A stretch of 64,000 nt of DNA. It comes from an uncultured Chitinophaga sp. (lineage in GTDB: Bacteria > Bacteroidota > Bacteroidia > Bacteroidales > GCA-2748055). This document shows positions 1,728 through 28,055 of the stretch, piece after piece (position 1 is the stretch's first letter; each line of letters opens with the position of its first letter). The stretch spans positions 39,879 to 103,878 of the forward strand of contig CAYGFI010000002.1 in NCBI GenBank assembly GCA_964349045.1. Reading direction: 5' to 3'. Below the pieces are notes generated by a model. It searched no databases. It was not told the origin of the DNA and saw only the letters and a program-made list of their open reading frames with translations. The translations under genes and the position numbers were made by a program.

Positions 1728-1749
1728 TAGAAAAGAATAATATAAGAGC

Positions 1750-2510: not shown

Positions 2511-2596
2511 TGTTTATGAGTGAACAAAGATAACCGGAAGCCTTTATGCCGTAAATGATTTATAACATGAGGTGGGTATGTTGTTTAGCTTTTATT

Positions 2597-3304: not shown

Positions 3305-3345
3305 AGTTGGTTTTTTTGCAATAATTCTGACAGAACCGGTCACAT

Positions 3346-3996: not shown

Positions 3997-4032
3997 TTTA
4001 CTGCCTGATTTAGTTGTCATTAAAATACTGCC

Positions 4033-4449: not shown

Positions 4450-4691
4450 TTATATTTTTCTTCAATAAAGCTGGAGTAATCCTTCTTGTAATCGTAATCT
4501 TCCGGTAAATCAATTACACCACTTAAGCTTTTAACCAGGGGTGTAATTTCCATCTCTGATGGATTTTGCCTTGTTACTGAATCAAGATAGGTTTCAATCA
4601 ATTTTGATAAGCTTATTTTATGATTCTGAGCATAATGTTTAGCCCTGATAATCACTTTGTTGTCAAGTCTTAGTGTCAGTTTTGTTTCCAT
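4446..4691 (-). CDS. Antitoxin partner of the PIN toxin (resembles the DUF6364 family)
   Basis: METKLTLRLDNKVIIRAKHYAQNHKISLSKLIETYLDSV.. . Small, immediately upstream of the PIN gene and 4-nt overlapped with it. Maximal ORF reaches 4712. Confidence 0.7.
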   Translation of the reverse strand: METKLTLRLDNKVIIRAKHYAQNHKISLSKLIETYLDSVTRQNPSEMEITPLVKSLSGVIDLPEDYDYKKDYSSFIEEKYK

Positions 4692-4868
4692 GGTAATGAT
4701 AATTACGTACAAAATTATGAAATAGGTACGTCAATTGCAAAATATTATAGAGTTGCTTACAGGTTTTTTGCTAACGATCATTATTACAGATAAAAAATTG
4801 AAATGCAAAAGGGTAACTACTGACCCAGGTAGAATGGTTTGCTTTAGATTCAACAAACAATCCATTTA

Positions 4869-7271: not shown

Positions 7272-7344
7272 AGACTTGTTTCAGACTTAACAATAACTTT
7301 TTTTATGTTCAGATATGCTTCTTATGTTCTTGACTTATACTTTT

Positions 7345-7448
7345 TTCACAGGGCGATGCCCTGTGTTAGTATATATCGGGCTTTCAGCCCTGGTGCCTGT
7401 TTCACAGGGCGATGCCCTGTGTTAATATATATCGGGCTTTCAGCCCTG
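7345..7448. repeat. Tandem duplication (period 56 nt) of a 48-nt double-hairpin unit
   Basis: Unit ttcacagggcgatgccctgtgtta(g/a)tatatatcgggctttcagccctg at 7345-7392 and 7401-7448, with 1 mismatch. Each unit has an 8-bp stem (cacagggc gat gccctgtg) and a 5-bp stem (gggct ttc agccc). Confidence 0.9.
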
Positions 7449-7467
7449 TGGAATAATGGGATGTAAA

Positions 7468-7845
7468 TTACTTCTGGCTTTCAGGCACAAAAAACATTCC
7501 CGCGATTTGATTTTTTTCATTAAAGACCAATTTCATCTGCAAATTCATCTTTTCAAAATGGCATAACACGTAGGTAACATCATATGTTTGAATTTTACCT
7601 TCAGTGATCTCTGAAAACTTCTGGAATTTGCCACATTTGCTGTTTAAATCTTCCCATACGAATTTCAGTTTATCTTCGGGCAATGCTGTTTTCATAGTTT
7701 CATCATAAAAAAAAACAATTTTTGAGTATTCGGTTTTTTGAAAACTATTAATAACTTCTTTTGAGATACTAATATTTTTACTTTCCTGGAAAAGTATGAA
7801 TGCGCTGAAAGCACACAAAAGAATTACTAAAATTGAACTTTTCAT
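7468..7845 (-). CDS. Small secreted protein (DUF3887-like)
   Basis: 125 aa, signal peptide MKSSILVILLCAFSAFILF. The ..ETMKTALPEDKLKFVWEDLNSKCGKF.. pattern is reminiscent of DUF3887. The family call is tentative. Confidence 0.45.
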   Translation of the reverse strand: MKSSILVILLCAFSAFILFQESKNISISKEVINSFQKTEYSKIVFFYDETMKTALPEDKLKFVWEDLNSKCGKFQKFSEITEGKIQTYDVTYVLCHFEKMNLQMKLVFNEKNQIAGMFFVPESQK

Positions 7846-8058: not shown

Positions 8059-11000
8059 CTACCTCGTCAACATCGCTTTCCTCATAATCACCGTATCATC
8101 CACCAAAATCCTGAGGTAATATAAACCGGGTTTATAATTTACATCGGTTGCTTTCATCTCAAGTTTATAAGCCCCTGCGGATTGGTTTTCATCGAGCATG
8201 ATTTTAATCTTTTCACCAACCACATTGTAAATTTCTACTTTCATCCTTGCCGGTTTTTCGAGGGAATAACTGATGGTTGTAAAGTCGGTAAACGGACTTG
8301 GATAAACAGTCAGTTGGATGGCATCGGCCAGCGGGTTATTTATGTTGGTGCCCTGTATCCTGTTATCTTCCAGGTTGGACAAAGAGTGAACAAACGGACC
8401 TGAACTGGCTTTTTTACCAAGCAAGCCTGCCGGATCGCAAGTATCAGGATTTAATAAGGATATCTGGTAATAAACGATTCCTTCAGGTACGGTGTTATCA
8501 GTAAATGATGTTATGCTGCTTTGAACGGTTTTTAAAAGTTCAAGGCTGTCAGCTGCCGGTCCCCTGTAGATCTCATAAGTACCAAATAGCATACCCTCAT
8601 AATTTTCCCAGATCAGGTTCAACTCCTCATTTAATCCCTTGTTTATTGTAAGATGCATTGTTTTATGCGGAGGGCTCATCGGGCTTTCGTTTCCACAGGT
8701 ATCAACAACCGAGATCCTGTACCGGTCGCTCTTTTCTTCGGGAGCGGATGCTGCATCGGTAAACACTGTCAGTTGGGTTGCTGATTGAACACCGATTATT
8801 TCATAGACTCCTGCAAAGGTTGATTCCCGGTAAATCAGGTATTGTTCGATGGAGGACATATCCGGTTTTTCCCATATTACCATGTTTTTACCGCTTTCAT
8901 CCACAGTTACCATGCAGATTTTCTGACCTGAATAGGGTATAGTAGCCTTAACTTCCAACGATGCTTTACTTCCACAACCATTTACCCCATAGGCTGTAAC
9001 GCTGAAAATACCGGAGGTATCAATTGCAATTGATTGTGTAGTCATATTATTATTCCACATGTAAGAAGCATAACCGGAACCTGCATCGATAATAATTTCA
9101 TCACCATAACATATTGTCCTGGTTGTTCCAAGATTTGGAGCGATTGGAGCTGGTAACGTATTAATTGCAATTGTGTCTGTTGATCTGCATTTAAATATAT
9201 CTGTTGCCTGCAAACTGATATTACCGGCATTGTGAACCACTATTTTAGCTGTTGTTTCACCAGAGCTCCATAAATAAGATATGTATGAATTCCGTGGACT
9301 TAGCTCAACAGAATCGTTCTGGCAAATGGTAAGATCACTCCCCAGGTCAAGTTTGGCCGAAGACCTGCTTTCAACCAATACCTGTTTGGTAGCTGAGCAA
9401 GAATTCACATCATAAACCGTAACCTCAAGGGCTTGATTGGTAGCAACTTTTTGTATCCGCGAGTTTGATCCATTGCTCCACTTATAACTGACAAATTCAC
9501 CCGGATCCAGAAATGCAGGTTCATCGCCACAAATGTATTCAATAGGATTTAAAGTGATAATTGGTGTATTGCTATAAACAACTAATATCTCATCACTTCC
9601 CTGGCAGCCATTTTTATCTGTTACGGTTAGTCTAAACAGACCGGTGGAGGACACTGATCTGTCTTTCTGGGTGGAGCCATTTTCCCATAAATAAGAATGG
9701 AAAGCTGCAGGACCGTTAATAGTCATTAACTGGTTGCCGCATACTGTAGTGTCATTACCTAGATTAAACTGTGGTGAGGTTGTTACTGAAATGGTAAACG
9801 TATCGGAAGTCGCATAGCAGCCGAAATCGTTGGACACATTTACTGTAAATTTACCTCCTGTTGAGATTTCAATGGACTGAGTAGTCTTTCCATTTGACCA
9901 AAGATATGATGCGAAATTACCTGCATCGAGCATTGTGCTTTCGCCATCGCAAAATGTTACCGGCCCCATAATTACCGGACGTGGTTTAACCGCACCGTTC
10001 CCGGCGATATTAGATTCAATCCCGGTATAATCAGGGCTTCCTGCATCAATACATCCAGAAGGTATACTTGCTTTAACCTTGTAATAAACCACGCATTGCG
10101 GTACAAAATTGTCAGACCAGCTTGTAATACTTCCGGCTATATCTTTAACCTTAACCATATTTATTGAGTCGGATCCGCGATATATTTCATATTTGGCCAG
10201 GTTAATCCCCTCGTAAGCAGTCCAGGTAAGGTCAAATCCTGCGGAGCCTTTGTTCACTTTCAGGAAAATTGTGCCATGTGCGGGTGATAATCCGGATTCA
10301 TGACCACATGTGTCCACAAGCGACAATTTGTAGTTGTACTTCAACTGGTCGGAGAATGATAGGGTGTCAGTAAATATTCCGGCATCATCGTACTCCTGCA
10401 TACCAATCATTTCATAACCGCCTGAAATACTTTCACGATAAACTTTATATAACAAGGTTCCTTTCCCGGGAGTTCTCTTCCAGACAATAGTATTATTATT
10501 TAATTGTTTGTTAGCCGTCACGAAGCATATTTGCTCATCTTCATAAGGCGACTGCACAAAAACATATGCCGTGTCGCTGTTCTGACATCCAAATTCATCA
10601 GTTACTGTAACAGTATAATTTCCGGTAGAACCGACTGCCAGAGTACTTCCTGTATAACCGGTATTCCAGCTATAAGAATTAAATGTCCCTGCGAATAAAG
10701 TTTCCTGTTGCCCCTGACACAGGAATATATCATTGCCCAACTCTGGTTCCGGTAAGGGATGTACACTGATAGTAACCGTATCGGAATAGTGGATTTTATT
10801 ATTATAATCAACAGCCTTTACCCAATACGAGCCATTCGTATTCAGTTCGACAGACCGGCTTGTTTCTCCTGTGCTCCATAAGAAGGACTTATACTCCCAG
10901 CCAGCGTTGTATACATGACTCTGGCCCTGGCAAATGGCAGAACTACCTCCCAGGTTAATAATGCTCATGTTGTTAATTTCAATATCAATGGTATCAATAG

Positions 11001-14000
11001 CCCCTTCATCATTGTCAGCCGGGATCATAATAAGTGTATATGTACCATCGGCATCCGGAATGTCAGTTAAACTGTTCCATACCAGGCTTCCGGAATAATT
11101 TGCCGGCAAAATACCTGTTGTCTTACCCTCAAGAGTACAGGGATTCCATAAATTGTTTTTAAGGTACCTCATGGTTATCCTAAGGCTATTACCTTCCGGG
11201 TCGGTTAAATTATAACTGATTATTATATTCCCTCGTTTAAGACCTGAGATTTCTGCTAAAGTTACCGCGGGGATACCATTATTATCAATATGGAATGTCC
11301 ATTCAGCAGGGATGCCATCGTTACCGTCATTTGGAGTCAGACGGAACAAGACATCAGAAACATCAATCCCATTGAAATCAGTATTGGTATTCCAGGTAAA
11401 ACTACCTGCATAATCAGCAAAGACAATACTATCCAGGTTGCCGGATACTGAGGCTGTTTTCCATGTAAGCCCTTTATTTGTGGAATATTGAGCCCTCAGA
11501 TCTATTTCATCCTGTTCATCATCAGAAACCAGGTAATTGAAGAGAACATCCCCGCCGGTTTCAAAAGGCAGCATATTGGTAATCTGAACGGATGAAATGC
11601 CAATATTATCGACAACCAGATCAACCGTATCTGACTGGCCTTTATCGGCATCGTAAGGAGTAATTCTGAATGGTGTAACTCTTGCGGATCCTGCCAGGTC
11701 AATGCCTGCCTTCCAGACTATCGAATGGACTCCATTGGCGATATCAGTGGTATCTCCAGTAATGGTTGCACCGAGCCAGACTTTAGTGACTGGATTGTAG
11801 TATTCTGCATAGATCCGGCACAGATCGGCTTCATTATCATTGATTAAATAAGAAATTGTAACATCGTCTTTCACCTCACCAACGATTAAAGGAATAGTAA
11901 CAACCGGGCGGATGTTATTATTTACAATAAGCTTATTGGATACACCTGGCGTTCCATCGTACCGCAGATCGCCATCGCGTGGAGTGAGCCTGAAGCGGAC
12001 ATTTTTTAGCACGACACCGGGTATATCGGCATAAGAATGCCAAACCACAGATCCTGAATACTTTGTAGAATCCAGGTTCACCGTATCACCGGTAATTGAA
12101 GCCATATGCCAGGTAGTCCCTCCATCAGTTGAATAAGAGGGTTTGAGTTTGACGATATCTTTTTCCGCATCGGAAATAATATAATTAACCGTTACATCTT
12201 TGCTAACCACTCCCGGAATGCTACCTAAAATAACAGATGGGTTTTTATTACCATCATCAGTATAGAAGGTAATGTTTTGACTACCCGCGATATTCCCTGT
12301 ATTGTCCGCCATTCCTGTGTTGGAAAGTGAAATTTCAGTTCCGGTACCCGGAAGGGGGCCGTCGAGCTGCAGAATAACAGCCTGTTTGCTGCCATCGCCA
12401 TCCAGATCAATGAAAACAGGCGCTGACAGATAATAATAAATATCCAGGAAATTATCGGTTACCCTTGAGAATAATGCTTCCTCAGGAGTTCCGTCATTTC
12501 TGAAATAAGTAATGCTTCCATTTTCTTTACCCAGGAAAAGATCAAAATCTCCATCTCCATCAATATCTGTAAATTCAGGTGTACTATATGTACCAAGATT
12601 TGTTAGATAATTTGAAGTAACCATTGACCACTTGGGTTCAAAAGAATTCCCATCATTTCTATAGAAATACAAATTACCACCACAATCACCTATAAACAGA
12701 TCAAAGTCTTTATCATTATCTATATCTGTGAATGAAGCCTTTCCTGAGCAAAAGCCCATAAATGAGCTTTGTTTCCATAAAGTTTGATCCTGGTATAATT
12801 CTTCTGAAAAAGAAATAATTGAAGCTGCGCACCAATTATTAGCATTTATAAGTTCTACATTGCTATCATTATTTATATCGACAGGATAAAATGATTGATG
12901 ACAATTTAACGGGAATCCTTTTAAACTTTGCTGATTCCAAATTGGATTTAAAGCATTTCCAATATTCCTGAAAAATACGGTATTGCCATCATTCCCGATA
13001 AATAAATCAAAATCACCATCCGTGTCGATATCCGTAAATGCAGGTCGTAACCAACCGGAATTATAAATACCCATAGAATTGGTCACTCTTAAATCTATAG
13101 ATTTAATTATTGAGTTATTTAAATAAACCCTTAAATCCCCCCAGTTACCACCAACAATCAAATCTTTATCCTCTGCTCTATAAACCTTCTTTACACTCAA
13201 CCCATTATTAAGACTCCACTTTGCCGGATCAATTGCTGAGAAGAAGTCAATTTCTTCTGAGAAAGTAACGAGCAGCGTTGAATCCTGGGTTTCGCCATAT
13301 GCCGATAATAATGTTGGCGGTGTGCCATCAGAAGTTCCGTCAGTTGTTGCCATAATACCCTGTTCGAGCGAATAGTTAACCGGTTTTATTCCGAATAGGT
13401 ATTCACCATCGGGTAAAGTTGTTTGATAGCTTATTTTGGTGGAATCAAGAACAACCCAGGCAATCGTTGTATCAATTGCAACATCTGAGTTGGAATAAAA
13501 AAGGTAATACTGGTAAGCCTTCGGGTGGTTGTTCCAAACTAATTCGACCTTTCCGCCCTCAAGGGTACGAGCCCTGAAGTTATCAACCGGCCTCATAAGA
13601 ATGGCTTCATTGGCCCAATTGCTGTAAGTGACTTTTACCGTGACACCATCATCATAATAATCCCAGATCTTGGAGGATATTTTTGAGGTAAGTGTTGTTC
13701 CCCAGTAGTTTTCCTTAGCATTAATTGTCTCATAACTCTTGCGTAAAGCCTTCACATTAAACTTCTTATTATTATAAATATTATTGAAGTTTATAACAGG
13801 TAAATTCGCTGCTTCAATGCCATCATCCATGTTATCGAAGATGTCGTTGTACATGATCTGTGAGTTACCGTTTTCACGAATACCGTCATTTCCATTGGAT
13901 GCAACAAGGTTGGAGGTAATGGTATTGTTATCACTCTGGATGCCGATAGAGCCGTTCTTCATTATTTTATTATCCGAAATAGCAGAATTTGTAAGGCTGA

Positions 14001-17000
14001 CCCCAATCCCGCTATTGTTTTCGATATAATTTGAACTCAGTGTAATGTTTCCTCCGATCACTCCATCTCCGGTATTATATCGTATTGAGTTTCTCTCTAC
14101 AATAGACCCACCATCGGAGAAAAGTCCGGAACTGAAATTGTATTCAATAACATTATCACGGACAGAACAATTATTCGCATACATTCCTCTTCCTGAATTT
14201 CGCAATACTTTATTGCCGGATACAAAGCTGTTCCAGGCATTTAAGCCCTCGCCTTTATTAAGTTCTATGATATTGTTCTCGATAAGATTGGCAGTATTTA
14301 CCGACATACCTGCGCCATTATTGGTAACTATATTGTTCCTGACAGGTTTGTTGCTGTTACTGCTTAAGATTACAGCCCAGGATTTATTTTCAGAAAGGAT
14401 ATTGTTTTCGAAAGTGAAATTTCCACCGGGCGAGTTGACACCGTAATAATTACCGGTAAACAGACTATTCGTAATATTTCCTGTGACATTATTGTTTGCA
14501 AAAACTCCGTTTTCCCTGTTATCAATGAAGGTCATGCTGTCAATAATCAGTTTGCCACCGTTCATTTCAACCGCGTTGCGGCAATTGCTGATTTTACCGC
14601 GGCTCAATGTAACTTCCGATACATCGCCCCAGATTCCTTTATCGGCATTCTCGATTTGGAAATGAGAAAATTCGCCGGAACCGCTGCGGAAGAATATATT
14701 GCCAAAAGGATCAAAAGCTGCATTGGTGAACAGGATTGGTTCTGATTCAGTGCCGTTGGCCACTAAACGACCATCGATGGTAACCTGGCGCATTGAATCA
14801 AGTATTAGCATTACACCCGGTTCAATAGTAAGAGTAGCGCCTGAATCAACTCCCATGTTACAATTAATATAATAGGGACTATACTCTTTTGTAAGTGTGA
14901 AATCTTCGGAATAAACTCCACATACCGGGGTTACCGACAAACCTGAAAGCGCTACAACGCGTATGGGCTCATCGTGCGATTCGGCTTCAACAAGTATGGT
15001 ATCGCGATAAACACCAAGGACAGTAGGATGAAATGTAACATTTACGGGAACATTGCCAGAAGCATCAACTGTAATGCTTGATTGTTCAATTGCATAAGGT
15101 GCGGTGGGTGCATATAGCTTAAAGCTTTTTGGGATATTGGCAGTATTCGACAAATTAAAGGTTTTTGTTATTGAAGAATTGGTTTCAACAACGCTGAAAT
15201 TAACTTTTTGATGTTGAGTTCCCTGATATAACAGGGTCACTTCCTCAGGAGTCAGTGCGCGGTTATAGAGTGCTATATCATCAATTAATCCGTTGTAATA
15301 GTTCCATGTATCATTGGCATTATTTCCAAAAGCTCCGATTATAAAATCACTAAAAAACGTACTGAAAGGCACGCTCTGTAAAGTGTTTACAAGCGACCCG
15401 TTTTTGAATATAACCATATTGCCTCCTTCGTAGGTAAGAGCAATGTGGGACCATTCGTTATTTGGGATTGTAAAACCAAGTGGGAAGTCGTAACATCCTC
15501 CCCAGAAATAGGCAGTAGCTCCAGATCTTCCAATACTAAACATTTTATAACTACACTCATTTTTTCCCATATTAATAATTGTACCTCCATCGCTGTTTGG
15601 TTTGGTCCAGAAACATATAGAACGCGGTGTATTACCTTGAGGAACATTTGAAATGCTGGAAAATATCTTTGAGGAACCTGTAAATGAGAACGCGTTATTG
15701 GCAACACCAAACCTGTCAGGTGCAAGTGTTGCAGAGCTTACTGTACAATTGTTATTGTTTCCCGACTCATCATTTGCATTACTATTATAAGGATACCATG
15801 CCAACAGTCCATCAGTGGGTAATCCATTGGCAGTTGTTTTTACGGAATTGGAAAGGTTGCTTTCGAAACCCGCGGTATCGATAGCAGAAATCCAGTAACT
15901 ATAGTTTTGTCCGGGTATGAAAGAATGATCGGTAAATGCCGTTACATTTTTACCCAGGTTAAACAGAGGCACTAAACTGGATGTATCATCAGAATTATTC
16001 CTGTAAAGTTTATACCCCGCCAAATCTGCCTCAGAGGATGCGTTCCAGGTAAATTGCATGGAATCGCAATAATAGTTAGCTTTAAAATTTGAGGGAGGAT
16101 CGATATAATCGAATTTTGCTATAAGCGAAATTGAACTTGCCTCTGAATAATATAAAGCCTGTATTTCAGATTCCGAGATGCTTCGGTTATAGATTCTTAT
16201 CTCATCTAGTGATCCGCTAAAATAACCTACGCTCGCATCCGTATAAGGAGCAGAACCATAAGGGCTAACAGCCGAGCCAATAGAAAGCTCTCTGTCGGTA
16301 ACAAAAGTATTATTTATGAAATTGCTGTTTCGTGAAACTTCTGCACCATCAATATACATAACGGTTCCTGCCTGGCTGGTAGTAATAAGCCAATGATGCC
16401 AGGTATTTACAGGAATCTGGCTATAAGTGTGCATAAGACTGTTGGCACCGCAATGCGATTGCACTTCAAATTTTCCGTTCTGTCCGGAATTTATAATCTG
16501 TAAATAACTGTTGCAACTGCTGCTTCCTCCATAGCCAATCAGACCGGGCATATTTGAAACCTTATTGGCATTGAACCACAAACTTATGGTGCGTTCACCA
16601 GTTGGTAAATTGTTTGAAAAGGATTTAATATAATCGTCAATTCCATCAAATGAATATGCACTATTGGGATTCCCGAACCTGTCATTACCTAAAAATGCGC
16701 CGCTAACGTTTCCATTCCTGCCATACCCGCTTTCATCAAGGGCGTTTCCCTGGAAAGGATAATATGCCACAAGACCCTCGTTCAGTGTATTAACCTTATT
16801 ACTGGCATTGCAGAATATATTCAGGTTATCTTTATAACTTCCCTGAACAGAATTCCTGTCGAGAGTAAACACAATTATTGCTGAATCACCATCAATTATT
16901 GTATCAGGGACTTCGTATGCATATTTGTAAGGATGATCTATTACTGCAAGACTGTCAATATATAAGGGTTTATCACCAACATTTCTGATCCATGCTGAAA

Positions 17001-20000
17001 GTTGTGGTTTGCTGTATTTTGAAGGTCTTAAAGTACCGAAATCAACGAGGACCGGGGCCAAATCCAAAATAGCAGACAATTTAAACTGGGTATAAGACAG
17101 TTTGCTTGAATTATTGTTTGCTCCAAGAGCTTTTATGGCAAATTTGAAATCTGCTTTTGGAAGAGAAGCCTGGTAGCTTGTTTTGGATGAATCCAGGCTA
17201 ACCCAAATATTTAAAGAATCTACAATCCCTGATTGGTTATCATAGAAAAGCTGATAACCTGAACTTTTCATAACCGGCGTCCAATTCAGTTCAATGATCC
17301 CATTCGATATTTTATTAGCAGTGAAGCCTTGGACAACATTAAGGGTTATAGGTTCATTTTTATATGGATCATAATCCACTTTAACAGTTGCCCCATCATC
17401 GTAATAATCGTAAACACGCTGTTTGATAACCGATGATGAAGTAGTTCCCCAATAATTGTTTTCTGCATTAACCGTTTCATTGGATTGTTTGGTGGCTTTC
17501 AGGTCGAAAGCTTTATTACCGATAATGTTATTGAAATTAATAACGGGTAAGGTTGCTGTTTCGATCCCGTCGCCTCCATTTGCGTATATATCATTGAATT
17601 TGATTGTGCAATTGCTTCCCTCGTTAATACCATCGCCAGTGTTATATGCAATTTTATTGTTTTCAATAATATTATACCCGCTGGTTGAAATACCATTTCC
17701 GGCATTCTGCAATATTTCATTTTGCTTTATGGTTGAAGCAGACAAACTGAGACCATTACCTGCATTATGATTAATAAAGTTTAATAATAAGGTCAATGAT
17801 TCTCCACTTATACCACCTAAGGAGTTATCTCTAACTTTATTATTCGTTAATGTACTGCTCACTGCCCTGATTCCCCAGCCAAGGTTATTGTTAATTGTAT
17901 TATCCTGCACTCTACTGCTCCAGGCATTGATACCAATGCCCTTATTGGAAGAGATAATGTTTTCACCGATTGTGGCACCGGTTGCATTAATTCCCTGGTC
18001 GGTGTTCGATGACACAATATTTCTGTTTATTAAACTATTGCTGGCATGCAAACCTGAACCATTATTGTTTAAAATGCAATTATCTATAGCTTTCCCCTGG
18101 TTTTCATCGATATAAATACCCCATCCACGATTATTTGTAATGGTATTCCCTGTCATGGTAAAGGCACCTTGCAAAACACCATTCTCAATATTATTATTAA
18201 TGTTCGAATTTGATATAGAACCCGTAGTCCCGTTATAAGAATAAATACCATTATTAAGGTTTCCGGAAATCAAAATGTCTGAAATATTTGCCCGGCAGTT
18301 GTTAAGTTCAATTCCCTGTCCGCAGCTTGTTATTTCTCCACCGGTTATTGTCAGACTGGTATTTTCTCCATATATCCCTTTTTGTGCTCCTTCAATAATA
18401 ACATTTGAAAGTAAGCTTGCTCCGCTCTGCCTGAAGAAAATCCGGTCGAAATTGTCGCCTCCTTCGCTAATAAAACGTATCGGCTCTTCTGGTGTTCCAT
18501 TGGCAATAAGGCTTCCATCTACAAGGATTTTGCGCATGGAATCGATCTGGATCGTAACGCCAGGTTCAATTGCAAGGGTTTTGCCTTTGTCTATGGTAAG
18601 AACACAATTTATAAAATAGGGGCTTTTTGCTTTGGTTAAGGTTGTGTCTTCAGTAATAACTCCGCATAATTGGGTAACACTTGATCCGGAAACAGGAACT
18701 TTAATTAATGGTTTACTGTGATCCGTCCGTTCGATGTATAATGTATCGGTATAGAAACCCAAGGCAGAGGGATTAAAAGATAGGTTAATTGTTCCAGAGC
18801 CATTTGCCTGGATATTAATTGAAGATTGACCGACTGTAAATGGGACATTTAGAGTATTAATGGTATAATCGGCATCAGATGATTCACTGTTAAGTATTTT
18901 TAACTTTAAGGTTTTATTTGACCCTGCAGCTAATGCACCGAAGTTTAGTTCAGTCGGAGAAACAGGCTTACCATAAATATTTGTTATTTCGGTTAAGTTC
19001 AGAACACGGCTATAAATTGCTATATCGTCAAGCAACCCATTAAAATTCTCCGAGCCACGCTTTCCCCCGAAAACCAGATTATAGTTTACATAATTATAGA
19101 TATTTCCTTTAAGGCTGGCTGTATCAGCTAAAAAACCATTTATATATAATTTACAATTTAATGAACTTTGACTCCCATCAAAAGTGTAAACGATATGGTA
19201 CCAGTTTTCAAAATTAACAGTATTAGTACCACTCGTTATTACCTTGCTATTGTCACAATATTCAGTAATAGAAGCAGAAAACTTTCTATCGCGATGAAAT
19301 GATATGTAAAAAGGTTCGCCATTGCACCAATCCCTGTCTTGTGAAATAATCATATCTCTATTTAACCCTGAACCAAAACTTATAGGTTTTACCCATACAC
19401 TTATTGAAAATGTTGAATATCCACCTAAATGAAAATCCGTTTCTATTTTATCATTAATCCCATCAAAAGTATATGCCGAATTGGGTTTACCAAAGCGATC
19501 ACTAACCAGCGTGGCCCCTGAAACAGAAGCAATATGGCCGTTATTACTTTCGTCATTTGCATTGCCATTGAATGGATAAAAAGCAATCAACCCGCTGTTT
19601 GGTATTTTTGGCGGTGAAATGGTTTGCAATTGCAGGGATAATTCACTTTCATAATCAGCAGTGTCAATAGCCGTAACCCAGTAATAATAAGTTAAACCCG
19701 GAATGATTGTGTTGTCTGAAAACGAAGTGTCGGTATTTGTCAGGTTTGCCAGGGTCATTGCGGAAGAAGGATCTGCTGCGTTATTTCTGTAAATTTTGTA
19801 TCCTGCGAGATCGCTTTCATTTACGGCATTCCATGTTAATTTAAGGGAATCTTTGAAATATGATGCTTTAAAGTTAGCAGGCGCACTAATCCCCTTTATT
19901 ACTGCAGAAATTTTTAAAATTGTATCACTTTGCAGCTTACTGCCATTGCTATAAAGTCTTGCATCGAGTGCATAGGTATTCAGTGGATAATTTCTTTCCA

Positions 20001-23000
20001 GCTTAATCATAACCGGTATTGAATCACCGGAGGAAATATCGGCCGGGAATGTTGCACCTATTGAGAAGGGAGGCGTAATCCCACCAATACTATCGACATG
20101 CAAAGACAGATCTCCGGTATTTTTGATGTGCGTAATTAGCTCGCTATCAATATATTTAGAGGGGCGCAGCGAACCAAAATCTATAAACTCCGGCACAAAT
20201 TCTGAAATGCTTGATAAAACATAATTATAATAAACCAGCTGGCTTACTCCTCCGCTCTCACCTAAAGCCCTGATAGCAAATTTATAATCGCCTACTGCCA
20301 ATGTTGCAGTATAACTTGTTGCAAGAGAGTCTAATGTTACCCATACTGAGGTTGTATCAATCGTTCCTGACTGGTTATCATAATACAGTAAATAGTTTTT
20401 AGCTTTAATATTCTCCTGCCAGCTTATTTTTATTTTGCCGGGCATATCTTTTACAGCGATAAATCCCTTTACGGATTCAAGCGGAACGGGTGCTCCTTTA
20501 AAGGGATTGAAATCAACTTTCACCGAAGCTGCATCATCGTAAAAATCTCTTACGTGATTTTTAATTGTGTCGACAACTGTAGTTCCCCACCAGTTATATT
20601 CTGCATTAACAGTTTCTGAGGTCTGTTTGGTAACTTCAATATCATATTTCCTGTTATTAAAAACAGAATTGTAATTAATTGTTGAAATGTTATTGGCTAA
20701 TACCCCATTTAAGGTATTGTTTATTATTTCGTTATAACGAATCTGAGAATTACCATTATCAACAATACCATTGCCTTTATTGCTTAGGATCAGGTTGTTA
20801 TTTATGTTGCAATTTCCGTTTGCCACTATACCATCTGAAAAATTATTATAGACCTTATTATAGGAAATTGCAGAGGATGTAACTGCTTTTATTCCTACAC
20901 CCCGGTTATCCGATATCGTATTTGATTTAATGGTCCCGTTACGAAAAAACAAACCAGAACCATTTTGTTGGATAAAATTACTTTCAATAATGGTTGTTTG
21001 ATTTTCACAATTAGAATAAATAGCCCATCCGTTGTTTTCCCTGATAATGTTACCTTTTGCCGTAAGATTTACCCATTCCCAGGAGGATGGATAGCTAATT
21101 CCATTTCCCTGGTTATTTTCAACCAGGCTTTTATTTATTACAGCGGTTGAATAATTGGTAAAGCAAAAACCGTCTCCCGAATTATTTTTAAATATGGATG
21201 AAGTTGTATTGATGTTGCAATAACTATTTGCATTCAGACCAGTTGCCTTATTATCCCTTATTATGGAATAATTCAAATTAAGGATGGATGTGTTCTCCGC
21301 ATAAATCCCATTTGTAGTATTTTCGAATATCTCCGTATTATTGATGATAGCTTTCGTCCCGTTTAGTGAAATCCCAAGGTTACATTTGCTTATTTTCCCC
21401 TTATCGGCAATAATAACTGCGTTTTCCGCAAATATACCCTGTTGCGCATTTTCAATTGAAAAGTTATTTAATTGTCCCTTACTGTTTGCACGGAAATAGA
21501 TTCTTTCAAACCTGTTACTCCCGTTATTAGTAAATAAAACCGGTTCATCCTCAGTCCCTTTTACGATTAATTCCCCATCAACCAGTATCCGTTTCATTGA
21601 ATCGAGAACAACTGTTACACCTGCTTCAATTGTCAGAGTAACACCCTGGTCTACTCCCAGGTTTCCGCAATTGATGAAATAAGGGCTGTTGGCCTTTGTC
21701 CAGGTAGTATTCTGGGTGAGTACACCACATAATGTATTTGCCGCATAAGCAGTAACATTGTATTTCTGAACAGGAATATAGGGATTACTAATGGTAAGCT
21801 TAAGTGTATCGTTGTAAACACCAATGGAGGAAGGCGCAAAAGTAATTACCAGTTCAACTGTGTCTGCAGGGTCAATATCAAAGGCTGTCTGGTTCAGGCT
21901 AAAAACCGGATTATCCAATATAATATCAGTGATATGAAGAATATCACTTTTTAATGGATTTATAATTTGCAGCTTTTGCATCTTGGTCTCTCCGGGCTGA
22001 ATGGCTTTAAAAATAAAGGGATCAGGTGATACTGGAACATAATGGCTGGATGCAGTAAAGATGAAACTTCTTTCTGTTGCAAATGGGCTTCCCTTGTATG
22101 CATTATCAACAGTTTGCACACTCCAGAAATGTTCTCCCGGCTGGAGGTTGTTGATTTTCCATGTCTTATTCAGGTTGGTATTACCCATTCGTACTATCTG
22201 GCGGAGACCATCTGAAGCTGAGGCGGGTGAAAAGTCATCGCCGGATTCCGAAGCTGTTCCAATGCGCAGGTTATAGGTAAGACCAGCTTGTGGGGTTTCT
22301 GCATCAGATGATTTGTCCCAGCTAAACTGGACATAACTGTCGGTAATGGTTTCCGAAAGATTGTTGGGCGCCAATGGTGCAGTATTAGAAACAATACCAT
22401 CGTTTCTATACAGTTTTGTTATTTCTGAAGTACCTGTATGTCCTGATAAAATAACATCCAGATCACCATCATTATCGTAGTCCCCAAATTTTCCACAACT
22501 ATAATGAATACCTGTCAGACCGGCTTGTATATCTGTAAATACATTATTCCCATTATTACGGTAGATCCTGGAAATAATTTCACTTACCTCGCCAGGTTTA
22601 TAACCAGTTAAAAGGATATCCAGATCTCCGTCGTTGTCGAAATCTCCAAAGTCTGCATATCCATATCGTACATTGGGTAAGCTGGTTGAAATATCCGTAA
22701 ACAGGTTATTGCCATCATTTCGGCTCAGAAGTACACCACTATATCCCAGCAGTAGGACATCAAGGTCTCCATCGTTGTCATAATCACCCCAGGTGGCAGA
22801 GGAACAATCATAATAGGCTCCAAAATTTCTTATTGTACTGATACCTGCAGGCCCATTATTTTGAAAGATCCGGCTATTATCGCCAGATGTTAAAATATCC
22901 AAATCGCCATCATTATCATAATCACCCCAATTTACATCGCCCATATAATTATAACCAAAATCGTATTTTAAGGAGTACTGTCCATTCTTATACTCATAAA

Positions 23001-23604
23001 CTCTTGTCAGCCAACCGTAATAGGAATGGTGCCCGTTCAACAAAATATCCAGGTCGCCGTCATTGTCAAAATCTCCCCAGTCAACATCGCCCCAGCTATC
23101 ATTTGTTAAAATATTCAACCCAATATCTGTAAAGGTACCAATACCATCATTGCTGAAGATTTTCGTCGGGCTATTTCCTGTAATCAGGATATCCAGATCT
23201 CCATCGTTGTCATAATCGCCCCATGTACCATCTCCATAAGAAATTGAAGCCAGGTTGGCAATTTCAGTAAAAACTGCATTGCCGTCATTCCGGAATACCT
23301 TAGCCATTCCATTACCAGTGAGCAGTAAATCCAGATCGCCATCGCTGTCATAATCACCCCATTCGATTGATGGCACATATAATCCGGGCAAAGAAGTTGG
23401 CACTTCAGTAAACGTTTGTGCCTCAACCAACGAAAAATGAAGAAGGAAGAATAAAGAAACTAAAAGCCAGTTTATGCGACTTACGCCTATCCTGACCCGC
23501 CCATGCATTTCAATGTTTGTTTTGTAAATTTCTGTTGCTGGAATTTGGGCTGTTCTGGTAATTGTTATCTTTTTCATGTTACCCGGAATATATATTTGTT
23601 GCAA
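8059..23604 (-). CDS. Giant (5,181 aa) T9SS-sorted multidomain surface or secreted protein: FG-GAP propellers, 3x Ig/beta-helix/Fn3/LamG supermodule, Asp-box repeats, Cys-rich Ig-like repeats, Por C-terminal domain
   Basis: One uninterrupted ORF. Likely start ATG 23508 (MHGRVRIGVSRINWLLVSLFFLLHFSLVEAQ, signal peptide). Seven W/FGDYDNDGDLD FG-GAP/VCBS repeats. Three parallel beta-helix blocks, each ending NAE.N.WGTT...DYYDD. Three LamG_3-type domains (GL.A.YPF.GNA.DESG ... LDDIAIY.R.L). C-terminal ..LTVYPSPFTDFTTISYSL..VEIYNVVGEKI..GLYYLRI.. matches the T9SS type-A CTD. Confidence 0.9.
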   Translation of the reverse strand: MQQIYIPGNMKKITITRTAQIPATEIYKTNIEMHGRVRIGVSRINWLLVSLFFLLHFSLVEAQTFTEVPTSLPGLYVPSIEWGDYDSDGDLDLLLTGNGMAKVFRNDGNAVFTEIANLASISYGDGTWGDYDNDGDLDILITGNSPTKIFSNDGIGTFTDIGLNILTNDSWGDVDWGDFDNDGDLDILLNGHHSYYGWLTRVYEYKNGQYSLKYDFGYNYMGDVNWGDYDNDGDLDILTSGDNSRIFQNNGPAGISTIRNFGAYYDCSSATWGDYDNDGDLDVLLLGYSGVLLSRNDGNNLFTDISTSLPNVRYGYADFGDFDNDGDLDILLTGYKPGEVSEIISRIYRNNGNNVFTDIQAGLTGIHYSCGKFGDYDNDGDLDVILSGHTGTSEITKLYRNDGIVSNTAPLAPNNLSETITDSYVQFSWDKSSDAETPQAGLTYNLRIGTASESGDDFSPASASDGLRQIVRMGNTNLNKTWKINNLQPGEHFWSVQTVDNAYKGSPFATERSFIFTASSHYVPVSPDPFIFKAIQPGETKMQKLQIINPLKSDILHITDIILDNPVFSLNQTAFDIDPADTVELVITFAPSSIGVYNDTLKLTISNPYIPVQKYNVTAYAANTLCGVLTQNTTWTKANSPYFINCGNLGVDQGVTLTIEAGVTVVLDSMKRILVDGELIVKGTEDEPVLFTNNGSNRFERIYFRANSKGQLNNFSIENAQQGIFAENAVIIADKGKISKCNLGISLNGTKAIINNTEIFENTTNGIYAENTSILNLNYSIIRDNKATGLNANSYCNINTTSSIFKNNSGDGFCFTNYSTAVINKSLVENNQGNGISYPSSWEWVNLTAKGNIIRENNGWAIYSNCENQTTIIESNFIQQNGSGLFFRNGTIKSNTISDNRGVGIKAVTSSAISYNKVYNNFSDGIVANGNCNINNNLILSNKGNGIVDNGNSQIRYNEIINNTLNGVLANNISTINYNSVFNNRKYDIEVTKQTSETVNAEYNWWGTTVVDTIKNHVRDFYDDAASVKVDFNPFKGAPVPLESVKGFIAVKDMPGKIKISWQENIKAKNYLLYYDNQSGTIDTTSVWVTLDSLATSYTATLAVGDYKFAIRALGESGGVSQLVYYNYVLSSISEFVPEFIDFGSLRPSKYIDSELITHIKNTGDLSLHVDSIGGITPPFSIGATFPADISSGDSIPVMIKLERNYPLNTYALDARLYSNGSKLQSDTILKISAVIKGISAPANFKASYFKDSLKLTWNAVNESDLAGYKIYRNNAADPSSAMTLANLTNTDTSFSDNTIIPGLTYYYWVTAIDTADYESELSLQLQTISPPKIPNSGLIAFYPFNGNANDESNNGHIASVSGATLVSDRFGKPNSAYTFDGINDKIETDFHLGGYSTFSISVWVKPISFGSGLNRDMIISQDRDWCNGEPFYISFHRDRKFSASITEYCDNSKVITSGTNTVNFENWYHIVYTFDGSQSSLNCKLYINGFLADTASLKGNIYNYVNYNLVFGGKRGSENFNGLLDDIAIYSRVLNLTEITNIYGKPVSPTELNFGALAAGSNKTLKLKILNSESSDADYTINTLNVPFTVGQSSINIQANGSGTINLSFNPSALGFYTDTLYIERTDHSKPLIKVPVSGSSVTQLCGVITEDTTLTKAKSPYFINCVLTIDKGKTLAIEPGVTIQIDSMRKILVDGSLIANGTPEEPIRFISEGGDNFDRIFFRQSGASLLSNVIIEGAQKGIYGENTSLTITGGEITSCGQGIELNNCRANISDILISGNLNNGIYSYNGTTGSISNSNINNNIENGVLQGAFTMTGNTITNNRGWGIYIDENQGKAIDNCILNNNGSGLHASNSLINRNIVSSNTDQGINATGATIGENIISSNKGIGINAWSSRVQDNTINNNLGWGIRAVSSTLTNNKVRDNSLGGISGESLTLLLNFINHNAGNGLSLSASTIKQNEILQNAGNGISTSGYNIIENNKIAYNTGDGINEGSNCTIKFNDIYANGGDGIETATLPVINFNNIIGNKAFDLKATKQSNETVNAENNYWGTTSSSVIKQRVYDYYDDGATVKVDYDPYKNEPITLNVVQGFTANKISNGIIELNWTPVMKSSGYQLFYDNQSGIVDSLNIWVSLDSSKTSYQASLPKADFKFAIKALGANNNSSKLSYTQFKLSAILDLAPVLVDFGTLRPSKYSKPQLSAWIRNVGDKPLYIDSLAVIDHPYKYAYEVPDTIIDGDSAIIVFTLDRNSVQGSYKDNLNIFCNASNKVNTLNEGLVAYYPFQGNALDESGYGRNGNVSGAFLGNDRFGNPNSAYSFDGIDDYIKSFSNNLPTGERTISLWFNANKVSNMPGLIGYGGSSSCNSYLQIINSGQNGKFEVQSHCGANSLMHTYSQIPVNTWHHWLITTSQAGTVMYIDGAEVSRNSNFINNTFVTDRELSIGSAVSPYGSAPYTDASVGYFSGSLDEIRIYNRSISESEIQALYYSEASSISLIAKFDYIDPPSNFKANYYCDSMQFTWNASSEADLAGYKLYRNNSDDTSSLVPLFNLGKNVTAFTDHSFIPGQNYSYWISAIDTAGFESNLSNSVKTTANGLPTDGLLAWYPYNSNANDESGNNNNCTVSSATLAPDRFGVANNAFSFTGSSKIFSSISNVPQGNTPRSICFWTKPNSDGGTIINMGKNECSYKMFSIGRSGATAYFWGGCYDFPLGFTIPNNEWSHIALTYEGGNMVIFKNGSLVNTLQSVPFSTFFSDFIIGAFGNNANDTWNYYNGLIDDIALYNRALTPEEVTLLYQGTQHQKVNFSVVETNSSITKTFNLSNTANIPKSFKLYAPTAPYAIEQSSITVDASGNVPVNVTFHPTVLGVYRDTILVEAESHDEPIRVVALSGLSVTPVCGVYSEDFTLTKEYSPYYINCNMGVDSGATLTIEPGVMLILDSMRQVTIDGRLVANGTESEPILFTNAAFDPFGNIFFRSGSGEFSHFQIENADKGIWGDVSEVTLSRGKISNCRNAVEMNGGKLIIDSMTFIDNRENGVFANNNVTGNITNSLFTGNYYGVNSPGGNFTFENNILSENKSWAVILSSNSNKPVRNNIVTNNGAGMSVNTANLIENNIIELNKGEGLNAWNSFVSGNKVLRNSGRGMYANNCSVRDNVIEYNFSSGLFSDGGSIVERNSIRYNTGDGVIGGNITLSSNYIENNSGIGVSLTNSAISDNKIMKNGSIGIQSDNNTITSNLVASNGNDGIRENGNSQIMYNDIFDNMDDGIEAANLPVINFNNIYNNKKFNVKALRKSYETINAKENYWGTTLTSKISSKIWDYYDDGVTVKVTYSNWANEAILMRPVDNFRARTLEGGKVELVWNNHPKAYQYYLFYSNSDVAIDTTIAWVVLDSTKISYQTTLPDGEYLFGIKPVNYSLEQGIMATTDGTSDGTPPTLLSAYGETQDSTLLVTFSEEIDFFSAIDPAKWSLNNGLSVKKVYRAEDKDLIVGGNWGDLRVYLNNSIIKSIDLRVTNSMGIYNSGWLRPAFTDIDTDGDFDLFIGNDGNTVFFRNIGNALNPIWNQQSLKGFPLNCHQSFYPVDINNDSNVELINANNWCAASIISFSEELYQDQTLWKQSSFMGFCSGKASFTDIDNDKDFDLFIGDCGGNLYFYRNDGNSFEPKWSMVTSNYLTNLGTYSTPEFTDIDGDGDFDLFLGKENGSITYFRNDGTPEEALFSRVTDNFLDIYYYLSAPVFIDLDGDGSKQAVILQLDGPLPGTGTEISLSNTGMADNTGNIAGSQNITFYTDDGNKNPSVILGSIPGVVSKDVTVNYIISDAEKDIVKLKPSYSTDGGTTWHMASITGDTVNLDSTKYSGSVVWHSYADIPGVVLKNVRFRLTPRDGDLRYDGTPGVSNKLIVNNNIRPVVTIPLIVGEVKDDVTISYLINDNEADLCRIYAEYYNPVTKVWLGATITGDTTDIANGVHSIVWKAGIDLAGSARVTPFRITPYDADKGQSDTVDLVVDNIGISSVQITNMLPFETGGDVLFNYLVSDDEQDEIDLRAQYSTNKGLTWKTASVSGNLDSIVFADYAGSFTWNTNTDFNGIDVSDVLFRLTPNDGNDGIPAEWTFHIDNNGIPAVTLAEISGLKRGNIIISYNLTDPEGNSLRITMRYLKNNLWNPCTLEGKTTGILPANYSGSLVWNSLTDIPDADGTYTLIMIPADNDEGAIDTIDIEINNMSIINLGGSSAICQGQSHVYNAGWEYKSFLWSTGETSRSVELNTNGSYWVKAVDYNNKIHYSDTVTISVHPLPEPELGNDIFLCQGQQETLFAGTFNSYSWNTGYTGSTLAVGSTGNYTVTVTDEFGCQNSDTAYVFVQSPYEDEQICFVTANKQLNNNTIVWKRTPGKGTLLYKVYRESISGGYEMIGMQEYDDAGIFTDTLSFSDQLKYNYKLSLVDTCGHESGLSPAHGTIFLKVNKGSAGFDLTWTAYEGINLAKYEIYRGSDSINMVKVKDIAGSITSWSDNFVPQCVVYYKVKASIPSGCIDAGSPDYTGIESNIAGNGAVKPRPVIMGPVTFCDGESTMLDAGNFASYLWSNGKTTQSIEISTGGKFTVNVSNDFGCYATSDTFTISVTTSPQFNLGNDTTVCGNQLMTINGPAAFHSYLWENGSTQKDRSVSSTGLFRLTVTDKNGCQGSDEILVVYSNTPIITLNPIEYICGDEPAFLDPGEFVSYKWSNGSNSRIQKVATNQALEVTVYDVNSCSATKQVLVESRSSAKLDLGSDLTICQNDSVELSPRNSYISYLWSSGETTAKIVVHNAGNISLQATDIFKCRSTDTIAINTLPAPIAPNLGTTRTICYGDEIIIDAGSGYASYMWNNNMTTQSIAIDTSGIFSVTAYGVNGCGSKASLEVKATIPYSGQKICMVTVDESGKNMVIWEKPDMSSIEQYLIYRESTFAGVYEIIGVQSATQLTVFTDAASAPEEKSDRYRISVVDTCGNESPMSPPHKTMHLTINKGLNEELNLIWENYEGMLFGTYEIYRGPAADSLELLKTVQSSITSFTDNTVPEGIVYYQISLLNPDTCDPAGLLGKKASSGPFVHSLSNLEDNRIQGTNINNPLADAIQLTVYPSPFTDFTTISYSLEKPARMKVEIYNVVGEKIKIMLDENQSAGAYKLEMKATDVNYKPGLYYLRILVDDTVIMRKAMLTR
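8062..8322 (-). other. T9SS (Por secretion) C-terminal sorting domain of the giant protein
   Basis: aa ~5095-5181: AIQLTVYPSPFTDFTTISYSLEKPARMKVEIYNVVGEKIKIMLDENQSAGAYKLEMKATDVNYKPGLYYLRILVDDTVIMRKAMLTR. The same domain type ends the proteins at 41607..44681 (about 41610-41840) and 44730..46517 (about 44733-44969). Confidence 0.8.
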
Positions 23605-26561: not shown

Positions 26562-26599
26562 ATGACCAGAGGAAGTTAATAACATTCAGCAATTCATAT

Positions 26600-27055
26600 C
26601 TACTCATTGTTTATTTTTAATAGCTCGTCTATTATATTTTCAGAAATCCTGAAATCAGTAAGCAATAAACTATCAATTATAGGCCTGACAGCACCAATTA
26701 CCCCTATCTGCTTTGCTTTGGTTATTACGCCCAGGGTGCCGGTAAATTTTAAATTTAACTTCAAGGCCAACTTTCTGGCTTTCAAGTCATCTATTAAAAG
26801 CAATGGATTTTCAATTTCCTTTGCCAAAGCAATTGCACTAGCTTCCCCTCTATCAATTTGTGTTTCAATAAACTCCTGATATTTTTTGTCCTTAACTTCC
26901 TTTATTATAATCCAATCCGGCAGATTCTCTGAAAACTCCTGAGCGACCTCGGGTGTGGTTATTACATTATCATAAACCTTTCGAAGTATATCCAATTGTC
27001 CGATCTTATTAAATATGATCAAACAACTTGTATCAGAAATTACAATACTATGCAT
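26600..27055 (-). CDS. DUF3368-type PIN-like toxin
   Basis: MHSIVISDTSCLIIFNKIGQLDILRKVYDNVITTPEVAQE...RGEASAIALAKE...LLIDDLKARKLA.. . Start refined to ATG 27055, which overlaps the upstream UPF0175 gene's stop (27048-27050) by 8 nt. Maximal ORF reaches 27127. Confidence 0.75.
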   Translation of the reverse strand: MHSIVISDTSCLIIFNKIGQLDILRKVYDNVITTPEVAQEFSENLPDWIIIKEVKDKKYQEFIETQIDRGEASAIALAKEIENPLLLIDDLKARKLALKLNLKFTGTLGVITKAKQIGVIGAVRPIIDSLLLTDFRISENIIDELLKINNE

Positions 27056-27275
27056 TGGATATATCAGAATGCAAATCCGACAAAGAATTACTGAAAACAG
27101 AAACCCTGTATCTACCCATAATCTCAATAAAAGTTCTTTTGGATAAACCTGCTAATTTAGCAGCTTGGCCTGATGATAATTTGCCATCCTCATATAACTT
27201 AGTAGCAATTATCATTGTGTATTCATGGTCCTTTAAATCAACATCATCTGGTACCTGCAGATTTATTGTTTTCAT
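27048..27275 (-). CDS. UPF0175-family antitoxin
   Basis: 75 aa: ..MIIATKLYEDGKLSSGQAAKLAGLSKRTFIEIMGRY.. (HTH-like). It is the canonical partner of DUF3368 genes and overlaps the toxin start. Confidence 0.75.
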   Translation of the reverse strand: MKTINLQVPDDVDLKDHEYTMIIATKLYEDGKLSSGQAAKLAGLSKRTFIEIMGRYRVSVFSNSLSDLHSDISNA

Positions 27276-27478
27276 GCTATCACATTTTATAAATACAAAG
27301 ATACGACTTTTTCCAATGGTTCAAGATTCAAAATCAGCTTAAATGACAGAAACACCAGGGTAACATTTAATCAAACTAATGTGTATCGTTTAATATTTCA
27401 AATTTAAGCGCCAAAATCTAATTCCTTCCATCAATACATATATATTAAGGTGAAATCGAACTCCTATGAAATGAATTC

Positions 27479-28036: not shown

Positions 28037-28055
28037 CGTGCAATTTTAATTCAGT

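Follow-up and report, generated by a model that had tools for sequence, protein, structure and literature searches.

A giant modular protein of an uncultured Bacteroidales bacterium as a candidate adhesin of the type IX secretion system

Giant surface proteins exported by type IX secretion systems (T9SS) are abundant in environmental Bacteroidota, and the ligand is known for almost none of them. The system exports proteins of up to 669 kDa (PMC11611037), and carbohydrate-binding adhesins are among those secreted, e.g., RemA with its lectin domain (PMC11205867). Cargo with a type-A C-terminal domain (CTD) is passed via PorV to the attachment complex and fixed to anionic lipopolysaccharide (A-LPS) (PMC11611037). 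In Cytophaga hutchinsonii, the non-enzymatic T9SS cargos CHU_3220 and CHU_0922 mediate substrate contact and are needed for cellulose binding (PMC11611037). Here, a further candidate is described, encoded by a 15.5-kb gene on a 64,000-nucleotide stretch (hereafter the window) of contig CAYGFI010000002.1 from an uncultured Bacteroidales bacterium (assembly GCA_964349045.1). An earlier reading of the sequence alone, referred to as the original prediction, had seen in it a T9SS cargo with an unusual domain mosaic that could bind glycans or act in adhesion together with neighbouring glycanases. The follow-up analysis leads us to favour, with some reserve, a non-enzymatic, C-terminally anchored and multivalent surface adhesin or lectin.

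Reading frame and domain architecture

The giant gene occupies positions 8059..23604 of the window on the minus strand, to which all its coordinates refer. It is a single uninterrupted frame, as originally described, of 5,181 codons counted from a TTG, with the stop codon at 8059-8061. It is the longest frame of the window by a factor of 4 (the runner-up has 1,259 codons). With about 6.3% stops per codon expected at 40% GC, the chance probability of a stop-free run this long is about 1e-146. A fortuitous frame is ruled out because Pfam and NCBIfam domain matches span it from end to end. The GC content of the gene (39.4%) equals that of its flanks. Copies of the internal repeats are 25-55% identical at the protein level, the sole DNA repeat family consists of seven FG-GAP units lying in register with 61-73% identity, and no long near-identical DNA repeats were found within the gene. 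The internal repeats have diverged strongly, and misassembly by repeat collapse is therefore unlikely. The gene is real and intact.

Near the 5' end, ATG codons lie at 23577 (M10) and 23508 (M33), and only M33 runs straight into a normal signal peptide. Short signal peptides are also found in the closest relatives, the metagenomic proteins P0257 (3,121 aa) and P0265 (4,460 aa), both unnamed or annotated as 'hypothetical', and support the same choice. The true start is probably ATG 23508 rather than the TTG, giving a protein of 5,149 aa; the mature form has about 550 kDa and a pI of 4.6. Residue numbers are nevertheless counted from the TTG. The original prediction noted a control region of 473 nt shared with a divergent gene of glycoside hydrolase family 9 (GH9). 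The divergent neighbour is indeed present, but with a start at M33, the spacer would measure about 569 nt.

About 36 domains were distinguished in total. Read from the sequence, the Sec signal peptide covers aa 33-62 (23419..23508; MHGRVRIGVSRINWLLVSLFFLLHFSLVEA then Q). From M33, it runs MHGRVRIGVSR-INWLLVSLFFLLHF-SLVEA, followed by Q, with a basic n-region, a hydrophobic core and a cleavage site between VEA and Q assigned by eye. An N-terminal Gln after signal cleavage is usual for Bacteroidota. The N-terminal head is formed by seven FG-GAP/VCBS repeats (aa 63-405; 22390..23418; Pfam FG-GAP_3, 1e-32), presumed to fold into a 7-bladed beta-propeller. All seven carry a DxDxDG loop of the Ca2+ type (at aa 84, 130, 178, 228, 274, 321 and 375), and the nearest solved sequence relative in a PDB sequence search, a weak match, was the Ca2+-binding propeller protein CRTAC1 (9etn). 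Behind the propeller, an Fn3-like domain at aa 409-517 (22054..22380) was matched weakly (Pfam fn3, E 0.0036; hhalign probability 8.5%).

The next part of the protein consists of three supermodules, each opening with an Ig domain of the ASH/choice-of-anchor-D type. Supermodule 1 (aa 525-1543; 18976..22032), delimited by Pfam and NCBIfam matches and an AlphaFold2 (AF2) model of aa 524-1135, contains the ASH-type Ig (525-620), a beta-helix (623-1040), Fn3 (1045-1132), Ig (1136-1236), fn3 (1239-1330) and LamG_3 (1333-1543). Supermodules 2 and 3 were placed by Pfam matches and landmark positions. In supermodule 2 (aa 1544-2795; 15220..18975), the ASH-type Ig is followed by a beta-helix (1644-2086), Fn3, Ig, LamG (2273-2498), fn3 (2501-2592) and a further LamG (2594-2795). 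Supermodule 3 (aa 2797-3422; 13339..15216) is limited to the ASH-type Ig, a beta-helix (2891-3335) and Fn3 (3339-3422). Pfam recognises three Laminin_G_3 modules, with scores of 145.7 and 73.2 bits (cut-off 27.6), and a PDB sequence search linked the third LamG to the solved chain 5hon_A, whose deposited name is 'Extracellular arabinanase' (E 1e-5).

A Big_5/SbsA-like Ig domain follows in two parts, aa 3426-3480 and 3744-3789, separated by an FG-GAP insert at aa 3481-3743 (together 12238..13329; alignment to relatives and FG-GAP_3). The insert of about 263 aa is shared by P0257; P0265 is without it, and both flanks align. The Big_5 match itself was obtained on the P0265 counterpart of the split domain. 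Next come four tandem Ig-like beta-sandwiches of about 105 aa, called here the 'Asp-box' type (aa 3790-4212; 10969..12237). Their AF2 model, built from 26 sequences, has a pLDDT of 94.5 and shows four separate sandwiches, with the best Foldseek matches among multi-Ig proteins (contactin, Dscam and the MG domains of complement and alpha-2-macroglobulin). A canonical Asp-box (SxDxGxxW) is present in the first repeat only (STDGGTTW, aa 3825). On these grounds, i.e., separate sandwiches, multi-Ig matches and a single canonical motif, a BNR/sialidase-like propeller was rejected.

No model for the Asp-box Ig domain exists in the copies of Pfam and NCBIfam searched. When 1.84 billion representatives were scanned in full with HMMER, 660 relatives were recovered. 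They come from several phyla, Rifleibacterium and an archaeal metagenome-assembled genome (MAG) among them, and almost all sit in proteins of 1,000-5,900 aa; arrays in other giant proteins reach 22 tandem copies. This distribution is typical of an extender domain.

The remaining array (aa 4213-5059; 8428..10968; Pfam, hhalign) is composed of PKD-like domains 1-2, an fn3 pair, PKD-like domains 3-7 and a second fn3 pair. The seven Cys-containing repeats match K319L-like_PKD with 42 bits, their Cys pairs being spaced by 44-45 residues, and the two kinds of C-terminal fn3 unit were aligned by hhalign to the Pfam-positive fn3 domains of the same protein with probabilities of 98.8% and 94.3%. After a linker (5060-5095), the chain ends in a sorting domain of type A (aa 5096-5181; 8062..8319; Por_Secre_tail, TIGR04183).

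The domain list of the original prediction, drawn up by eye, agrees with these boundaries nearly residue for residue. It had the signal peptide at aa 33-63, the seven-repeat FG-GAP head and three supermodules at 520-3420 (here aa 525-3422), and it placed the Fn3-like domain, for which the hhalign support is just 8.5%, at 408-517. The second FG-GAP region was correctly seen but proved to be nested inside an Ig domain. The four Asp-box repeats were counted correctly, although they are tandem Ig-like sandwiches with one canonical motif among them. The order of seven Cys-containing Ig-like repeats and two Fn3-like pairs was likewise retained, the repeats being refined to PKD-like domains and the pairs to true fn3 relatives. 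The mosaic described as unusual is assembled from domains that surface proteins of environmental Bacteroidota commonly carry.

Catalysis, export and proposed function

The three beta-helix modules fall into a widespread family of extracellular PbH1 proteins (best match 154 bits, 32% identity); its members are mostly stand-alone secreted proteins of 400-500 aa in Bathyarchaeia, Marinimicrobia and WOR-3. In an alignment of 67 sequences, the invariant elements are the N-cap, an Asn ladder and a C-cap with an N-W-W-G-T motif; the helix bodies contain about 20% Asn. The three paralogous helices of the giant protein are 30-47% identical to each other. With this alignment, AF2 modelled aa 524-1135 at a pLDDT of 84.6, the helix and the following Fn3 exceeding 90 and the leading Ig being poor. 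Foldseek matches of this model in the PDB include DHS dehydratase, AlgG, AlgE4, an alginate epimerase/lyase, lyases of polysaccharide lyase (PL) family 6, phage depolymerase tailspikes and pertactin. They are generic (E 1e-7 to 1e-4, TM at most 0.5, identity 10-14%), as are those in the viral library; over both, identity is 8-16%. PDB sequence searches with the beta-helix and with the C-terminal third gave no match.

No column of the helix body is conserved as D, E, H, K or R across the 67 family members, and His is missing altogether (0%) from the bodies of helices 1 and 3. AlgG and AlgE use a His/Asp/Tyr site. A His-dependent site of this type is therefore absent from helices 1 and 3. An enzyme of the AlgG, AlgE or PL6 type was rejected, given two of three helix bodies devoid of His, no conserved charged column and a generic structural similarity. 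Moreover, Pfam and NCBIfam scans of the giant protein found no glycoside hydrolase (GH), PL, carbohydrate esterase (CE) or peptidase family, which agrees with the original prediction that no catalytic domain is recognisable. We read the beta-helix modules as structural or binding rods and not as enzymes.

As for export, the giant protein is predicted to be a type-A cargo of the T9SS, as had been proposed. Both sorting-domain models match aa 5100-5177 and barely reach their cut-offs (Por_Secre_tail PF18962, 27.5 bits, cut-off 27; TIGR04183, 23.0 bits, cut-off 23). The same region can also be aligned with the ends of the CTDs of relatives, and a type-B CTD (TIGR04131 or CHU_C, PF13585) was not hit in the Pfam and NCBIfam scans. 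No genes of the T9SS machinery (porV, sprA, porU) lie within the window. Two adjacent glycanases at 41607-46517 (minus strand) are themselves T9SS cargo: a Sortilin/BNR protein (GH74-like) with Big_2, CBM6 and a CTD, and a GH5 with a CTD. Their presence implies that the organism has a working T9SS.

We infer the secretion, anchoring, orientation and ligand class of the giant protein from these features, and the following course of events is proposed. The protein would cross the inner membrane by Sec export and be cut after VEA, leaving an N-terminal Gln. The type-A CTD would then direct passage through the T9SS and, as in characterised type-A cargo, would be removed, with A-LPS then tethering the newly formed C-terminus to the outer membrane. 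With the anchor at the C-terminus, the run of 15 small C-terminal beta-sandwiches (four Asp-box Ig-like, seven disulfide-type PKD-like and four fn3 domains) would act as the stalk. The N-terminal ~3,700 residues would form the distal binding region, tipped by the Ca2+-type FG-GAP propeller and further comprising three beta-helix rods, three lectin-like LamG modules and the second FG-GAP region nested in Ig. Such a molecule may reach about 100-150 nm if extended, as estimated from typical domain sizes, and could bind particles, matrix or other cells in a multivalent, Ca2+-dependent manner, probably through glycans. The glycan-binding or adhesive role of the original prediction fits the three LamG_3 modules, the match to 5hon_A and the lectin-type heads of the relatives.

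Several points weigh against this picture. Many lyases, hydrolases and epimerases use the right-handed beta-helix as their catalytic fold. An active site may be peculiar to one lineage, so that missing family-wide conservation is no proof of inactivity. With the many glycanases of the genome, a role in catalysis or in organising enzymes keeps some plausibility. The scores of the CTD sit right at the threshold. Finally, no second assembly of the giant gene was found; searching for exact copies of the GH9 neighbour yielded just one Logan contig of 3.5 kb, which ends short of the giant gene.

Relatives and genomic neighbourhood

No full-length homolog was found in the libraries searched. P0257 and P0265 are colinear with aa ~3290-5181 (8062..13737), i.e., over about 1,900 aa, at 47% and 43% identity, respectively. 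This shared 'chassis' comprises a beta-helix cap, Fn3, the Big_5-like Ig, four Asp-box Ig domains, the PKD/fn3 arrays and the CTD. Upstream of the chassis, both relatives use the same kit of ASH, beta-helix and LamG domains, and neither has an FG-GAP propeller in its head. The head of P0257 bears two Fib_succ_major domains (270 bits), that of P0265 fn3, three LamG and a C-type lectin domain (27.8 bits, cut-off 22.6). Judged from these alignments, the three proteins form a small family of giant Bacteroidales proteins in which the ~1,900-aa chassis is kept and lectin-type heads are swapped.

Among the best 150 proteins with the Asp-box domain, the PKD/fn3 cassette is also present only in P0257 and P0265. 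The last ~900 aa (PKD-like domains, fn3 pair and CTD) recur at 30-37% identity on smaller T9SS cargos of Bacteroidia, whose heads are non-catalytic propellers or Ig domains. A protein of 325 aa in a Bacteroidia MAG (locus L007, 12964-13941; record labelled Chitinophaga) consists of just the fn3 pair and CTD of the cassette, so the stalk-and-anchor unit exists as a minimal stand-alone protein. A scan of GTDB genomes with aa 3761-5070 gave no ortholog and only six distant loci with the C-terminal cassette. A metagenome scan with the chassis alignment latched on to the cap motifs of the beta-helix, so that its hits were generic beta-helix proteins, and a homolog search with aa 3420-4220 was dominated by short FG-GAP proteins. 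Tetranucleotide correlations were 0.85-0.96 among all Bacteroidia loci, a range in which the question whether P0265 and locus L064 come from the same organism is not separable.

The valyl-tRNA synthetase (ValRS) of the window is 86-89% identical to that of uncultured Bacteroidales MAGs. The window was compared with four syntenic loci from at least three related Bacteroidales lineages, whose ValRS is 86-88% identical. L064 has the order ValRS ... OmdA, GH9, YkuD, DUF3887, PNPOx, QRPTase, and L065 has GH9, divergent GH95, YkuD, DUF3887, full-length GlnA, PNPOx, QRPTase. In L068 and L069, the order is GH95, YkuD, GlnA, PNPOx, QRPTase. Blocks of these loci map to window positions 1-7,800 and 24,147-32,600 at 66-79% identity (blastn). 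No trace of the giant gene was detected by tblastn in L064, L065 or L068, and in L069, with the gene order of L068, no giant gene was called. In L065, GH9 and GH95 themselves are the divergent pair. This pairing in relatives devoid of the giant gene therefore predates it.

By this comparison, the giant gene is a recent, lineage-specific insertion between GH9 and GH95. With it, the locus was rearranged, gained a toxin-antitoxin pair and lost an internal part of glnA. No tRNA was found at the insertion site. The pair, assigned by eye, consists of a PIN-like toxin (138 aa) and an antitoxin-like frame (88 aa) at 4033-4712 (minus strand), between an outer membrane protein (OMP) gene and GH95, and is absent from the syntenic loci of the relatives. 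The frame of 226 aa at 1750-2430 (minus strand) holds only the C-terminal part of glutamine synthetase. In the relatives, a full GlnA of 496 aa lies at the corresponding position beside PNPOx. The window is without the stretch that matches L065 20024-20805, and the frame, near the PNPOx end of the rearranged block, probably represents a glnA pseudogene that has lost an internal segment.

GH95 (same strand) and GH9 (divergent) are the direct neighbours of the giant gene. Both have signal peptides and no T9SS CTD; the GH5 and GH74-like glycanases, which do carry a CTD, are found at a distance of 18-23 kb. The syntenic loci without the giant gene leave its linkage to glycanases unsupported, and no glycoside hydrolase is recognisable in the neighbourhoods of P0257 and P0265. 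The suggestion that the protein works with neighbouring T9SS glycanases is thus not sustained: the syntenic loci keep the GH9/GH95 block without the giant gene, and GH9 and GH95 bear no CTD. Cohesin or dockerin domains were found neither in the giant protein nor in any glycanase of the window (Pfam/NCBIfam), and a cellulosomal scaffoldin was rejected for this reason. Within the spacer, a Bacteroidetes -7 box lies 26 nt upstream of GH9 and none on the side of the giant gene. The motif is not enriched in the window (72 found, 70 expected), and no regulatory conclusion is therefore drawn. The only terminator-like hairpin downstream of the giant gene lies after DUF3887.

Elsewhere in the window, three paralogous AAA_14 + DUF4143 ATPases are scattered among the glycanase genes (33940-35064, 40312-41514 and 58624-59757, all minus strand); copies also adjoin ValRS in L064 and L065. 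The last of them is overlapped by about 205 nt by a downstream NamZ frame (57441-58829, minus strand), whose start is probably downstream of its first ATG. No SusC/SusD pair was found among the window frames of at least 150 aa scanned. In a GH2 beta-galactosidase of 1,259 aa (53511-57290, minus strand), a Laminin_G_3 domain is inserted between TIM barrel and domain 4, so that a domain type of the giant protein occurs here in fusion with an enzyme.

Alternative explanations and comparison with known systems

The beta-helices also allow the protein to be seen as a multi-catalytic surface enzyme, in which they would constitute a new lyase, epimerase or hydrolase family and the LamG and FG-GAP domains would serve as carbohydrate-binding modules. 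This is considered unlikely. AlgG, AlgE4, alginate epimerase/lyase, PL6 lyases and depolymerase tailspikes do head the structural matches, the window is dense in glycanases and LamG_3 also occurs in the enzyme-fused form of the window GH2. However, the matches are generic, no GH, PL or CE family was recognised, the family keeps just the Asn ladder and caps while helices 1 and 3 have no His, and the three paralogous helices are merely 30-47% identical. It is distinctly doubtful, too, that the protein is a scaffold which positions the local GH9, GH95, GH5 or GH74 on the substrate and is co-regulated with GH9 via the spacer. The adjacency of its gene to GH9 and GH95, the LamG modules and the dependence of cellulose binding in C. 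hutchinsonii on non-enzymatic T9SS cargos (PMC11611037) would fit such a role. Yet related genomes keep the GH9 and GH95 neighbours without the giant gene, the loci of the relatives have no recognisable glycoside hydrolase, and cohesins and dockerins are missing. Besides, GH9 and GH95 have no CTD, glycanases with a CTD anchor themselves, and the -7 box is limited to the GH9 side of the spacer. Little probability is likewise given to the boldest combination of these ideas. In it, the supermodules would be a new carbohydrate-active catalytic or enzyme-docking unit, and the protein a T9SS-anchored, cellulosome-like megaenzyme or scaffold, acquired for work beside GH9 and GH95, within a head-swapping family of uncultured Bacteroidales.

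An adhesin need not be assumed if the protein is a passive, variable coat or decoy that shields the strain against phage, grazers or host factors. The lineage-specific insertion in a rearranged block with a toxin-antitoxin pair, the swapped heads of the relatives and the acidic, repetitive nature of the protein are compatible with this, but the lectin-type modules argue for ligand binding, and the chance of a mere coat is rated as slim. A gliding adhesin of the SprB/RemA type, moved by the T9SS-linked motor, is very unlikely: the protein is a giant filamentous T9SS cargo of a size similar to SprB (669 kDa), but its CTD is of type A and not of the motility-linked type B (TIGR04131/CHU_C), SprB repeats (PF13573) were not hit and no gld, sprC or sprD genes lie within the window. 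Membership in the SprB family was rejected given the missing type-B CTD and SprB repeats. Least of all do we expect an assembly artefact or a decaying pseudogene. The gene is known from one metagenomic assembly, and a second contig over it was not found; nonetheless, its frame is unbroken with domain matches throughout, its repeats are too diverged to collapse, its GC content is that of the flanks, and it is colinear over 1,900 aa with two independently assembled relatives.

The giant gene shows cleanly how a conserved C-terminal chassis of stalk and anchor is combined with interchangeable lectin-type heads. It adds an Ig-like extender, the Asp-box domain, which is missing from Pfam and NCBIfam and almost confined to giant proteins, and an insertion event that is dated by comparison with related genomes. 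It also calls for caution, as adjacency to genes of carbohydrate-active enzymes (CAZymes) in such genomes can be accidental. The current understanding of the T9SS or of polysaccharide degradation is unchanged, and no long-standing question is opened.

Among described systems, SprB and RemA of Flavobacterium johnsoniae are like the giant protein in being very large, repetitive, filament-like and T9SS-exported without an enzyme domain, and they share the logic of a long extender combined with binding modules, a lectin domain in the case of RemA. Unlike them, the giant protein has a type-A CTD, no SprB repeats and no link to gliding genes, and its kit consists of FG-GAP, PbH1 beta-helix, LamG, Asp-box Ig, PKD-like and fn3 domains. 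CHU_3220 (type B) and CHU_0922 (type A) of C. hutchinsonii are likewise large T9SS surface proteins without a catalytic domain. No sequence relationship to the giant protein was seen, though none was tested for, and the giant gene is not conserved beside glycanases. With P0257 and P0265, the chassis is common, whereas heads and genomic neighbourhoods differ. Stand-alone right-handed parallel beta-helix proteins (Pfam Beta_helix/NosD) have the N-cap (TTWTKANSPY...GVTLTIEPGV), the coils with the Asn ladder and the C-cap (N.T.NWWGT...IYD) in common with the supermodules, but they are only 25-32% identical, usually 400-500 aa long, single-module and secreted. Giant RTX adhesins of Gram-negative bacteria, e.g., the ice-binding adhesin MpIBP and LapA, also project a cluster of ligand-binding domains from the cell on an array of Ig-like extenders. 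They differ as substrates of the type I secretion system (T1SS) with an N-terminal anchor and RTX repeats, in contrast to the predicted T9SS export and C-terminal anchor of the giant protein. All in all, the giant protein belongs to the known giant modular T9SS surface proteins of environmental Bacteroidota and will not surprise a specialist; what is distinctive is its small unnamed chassis family and its uncatalogued extender domain.

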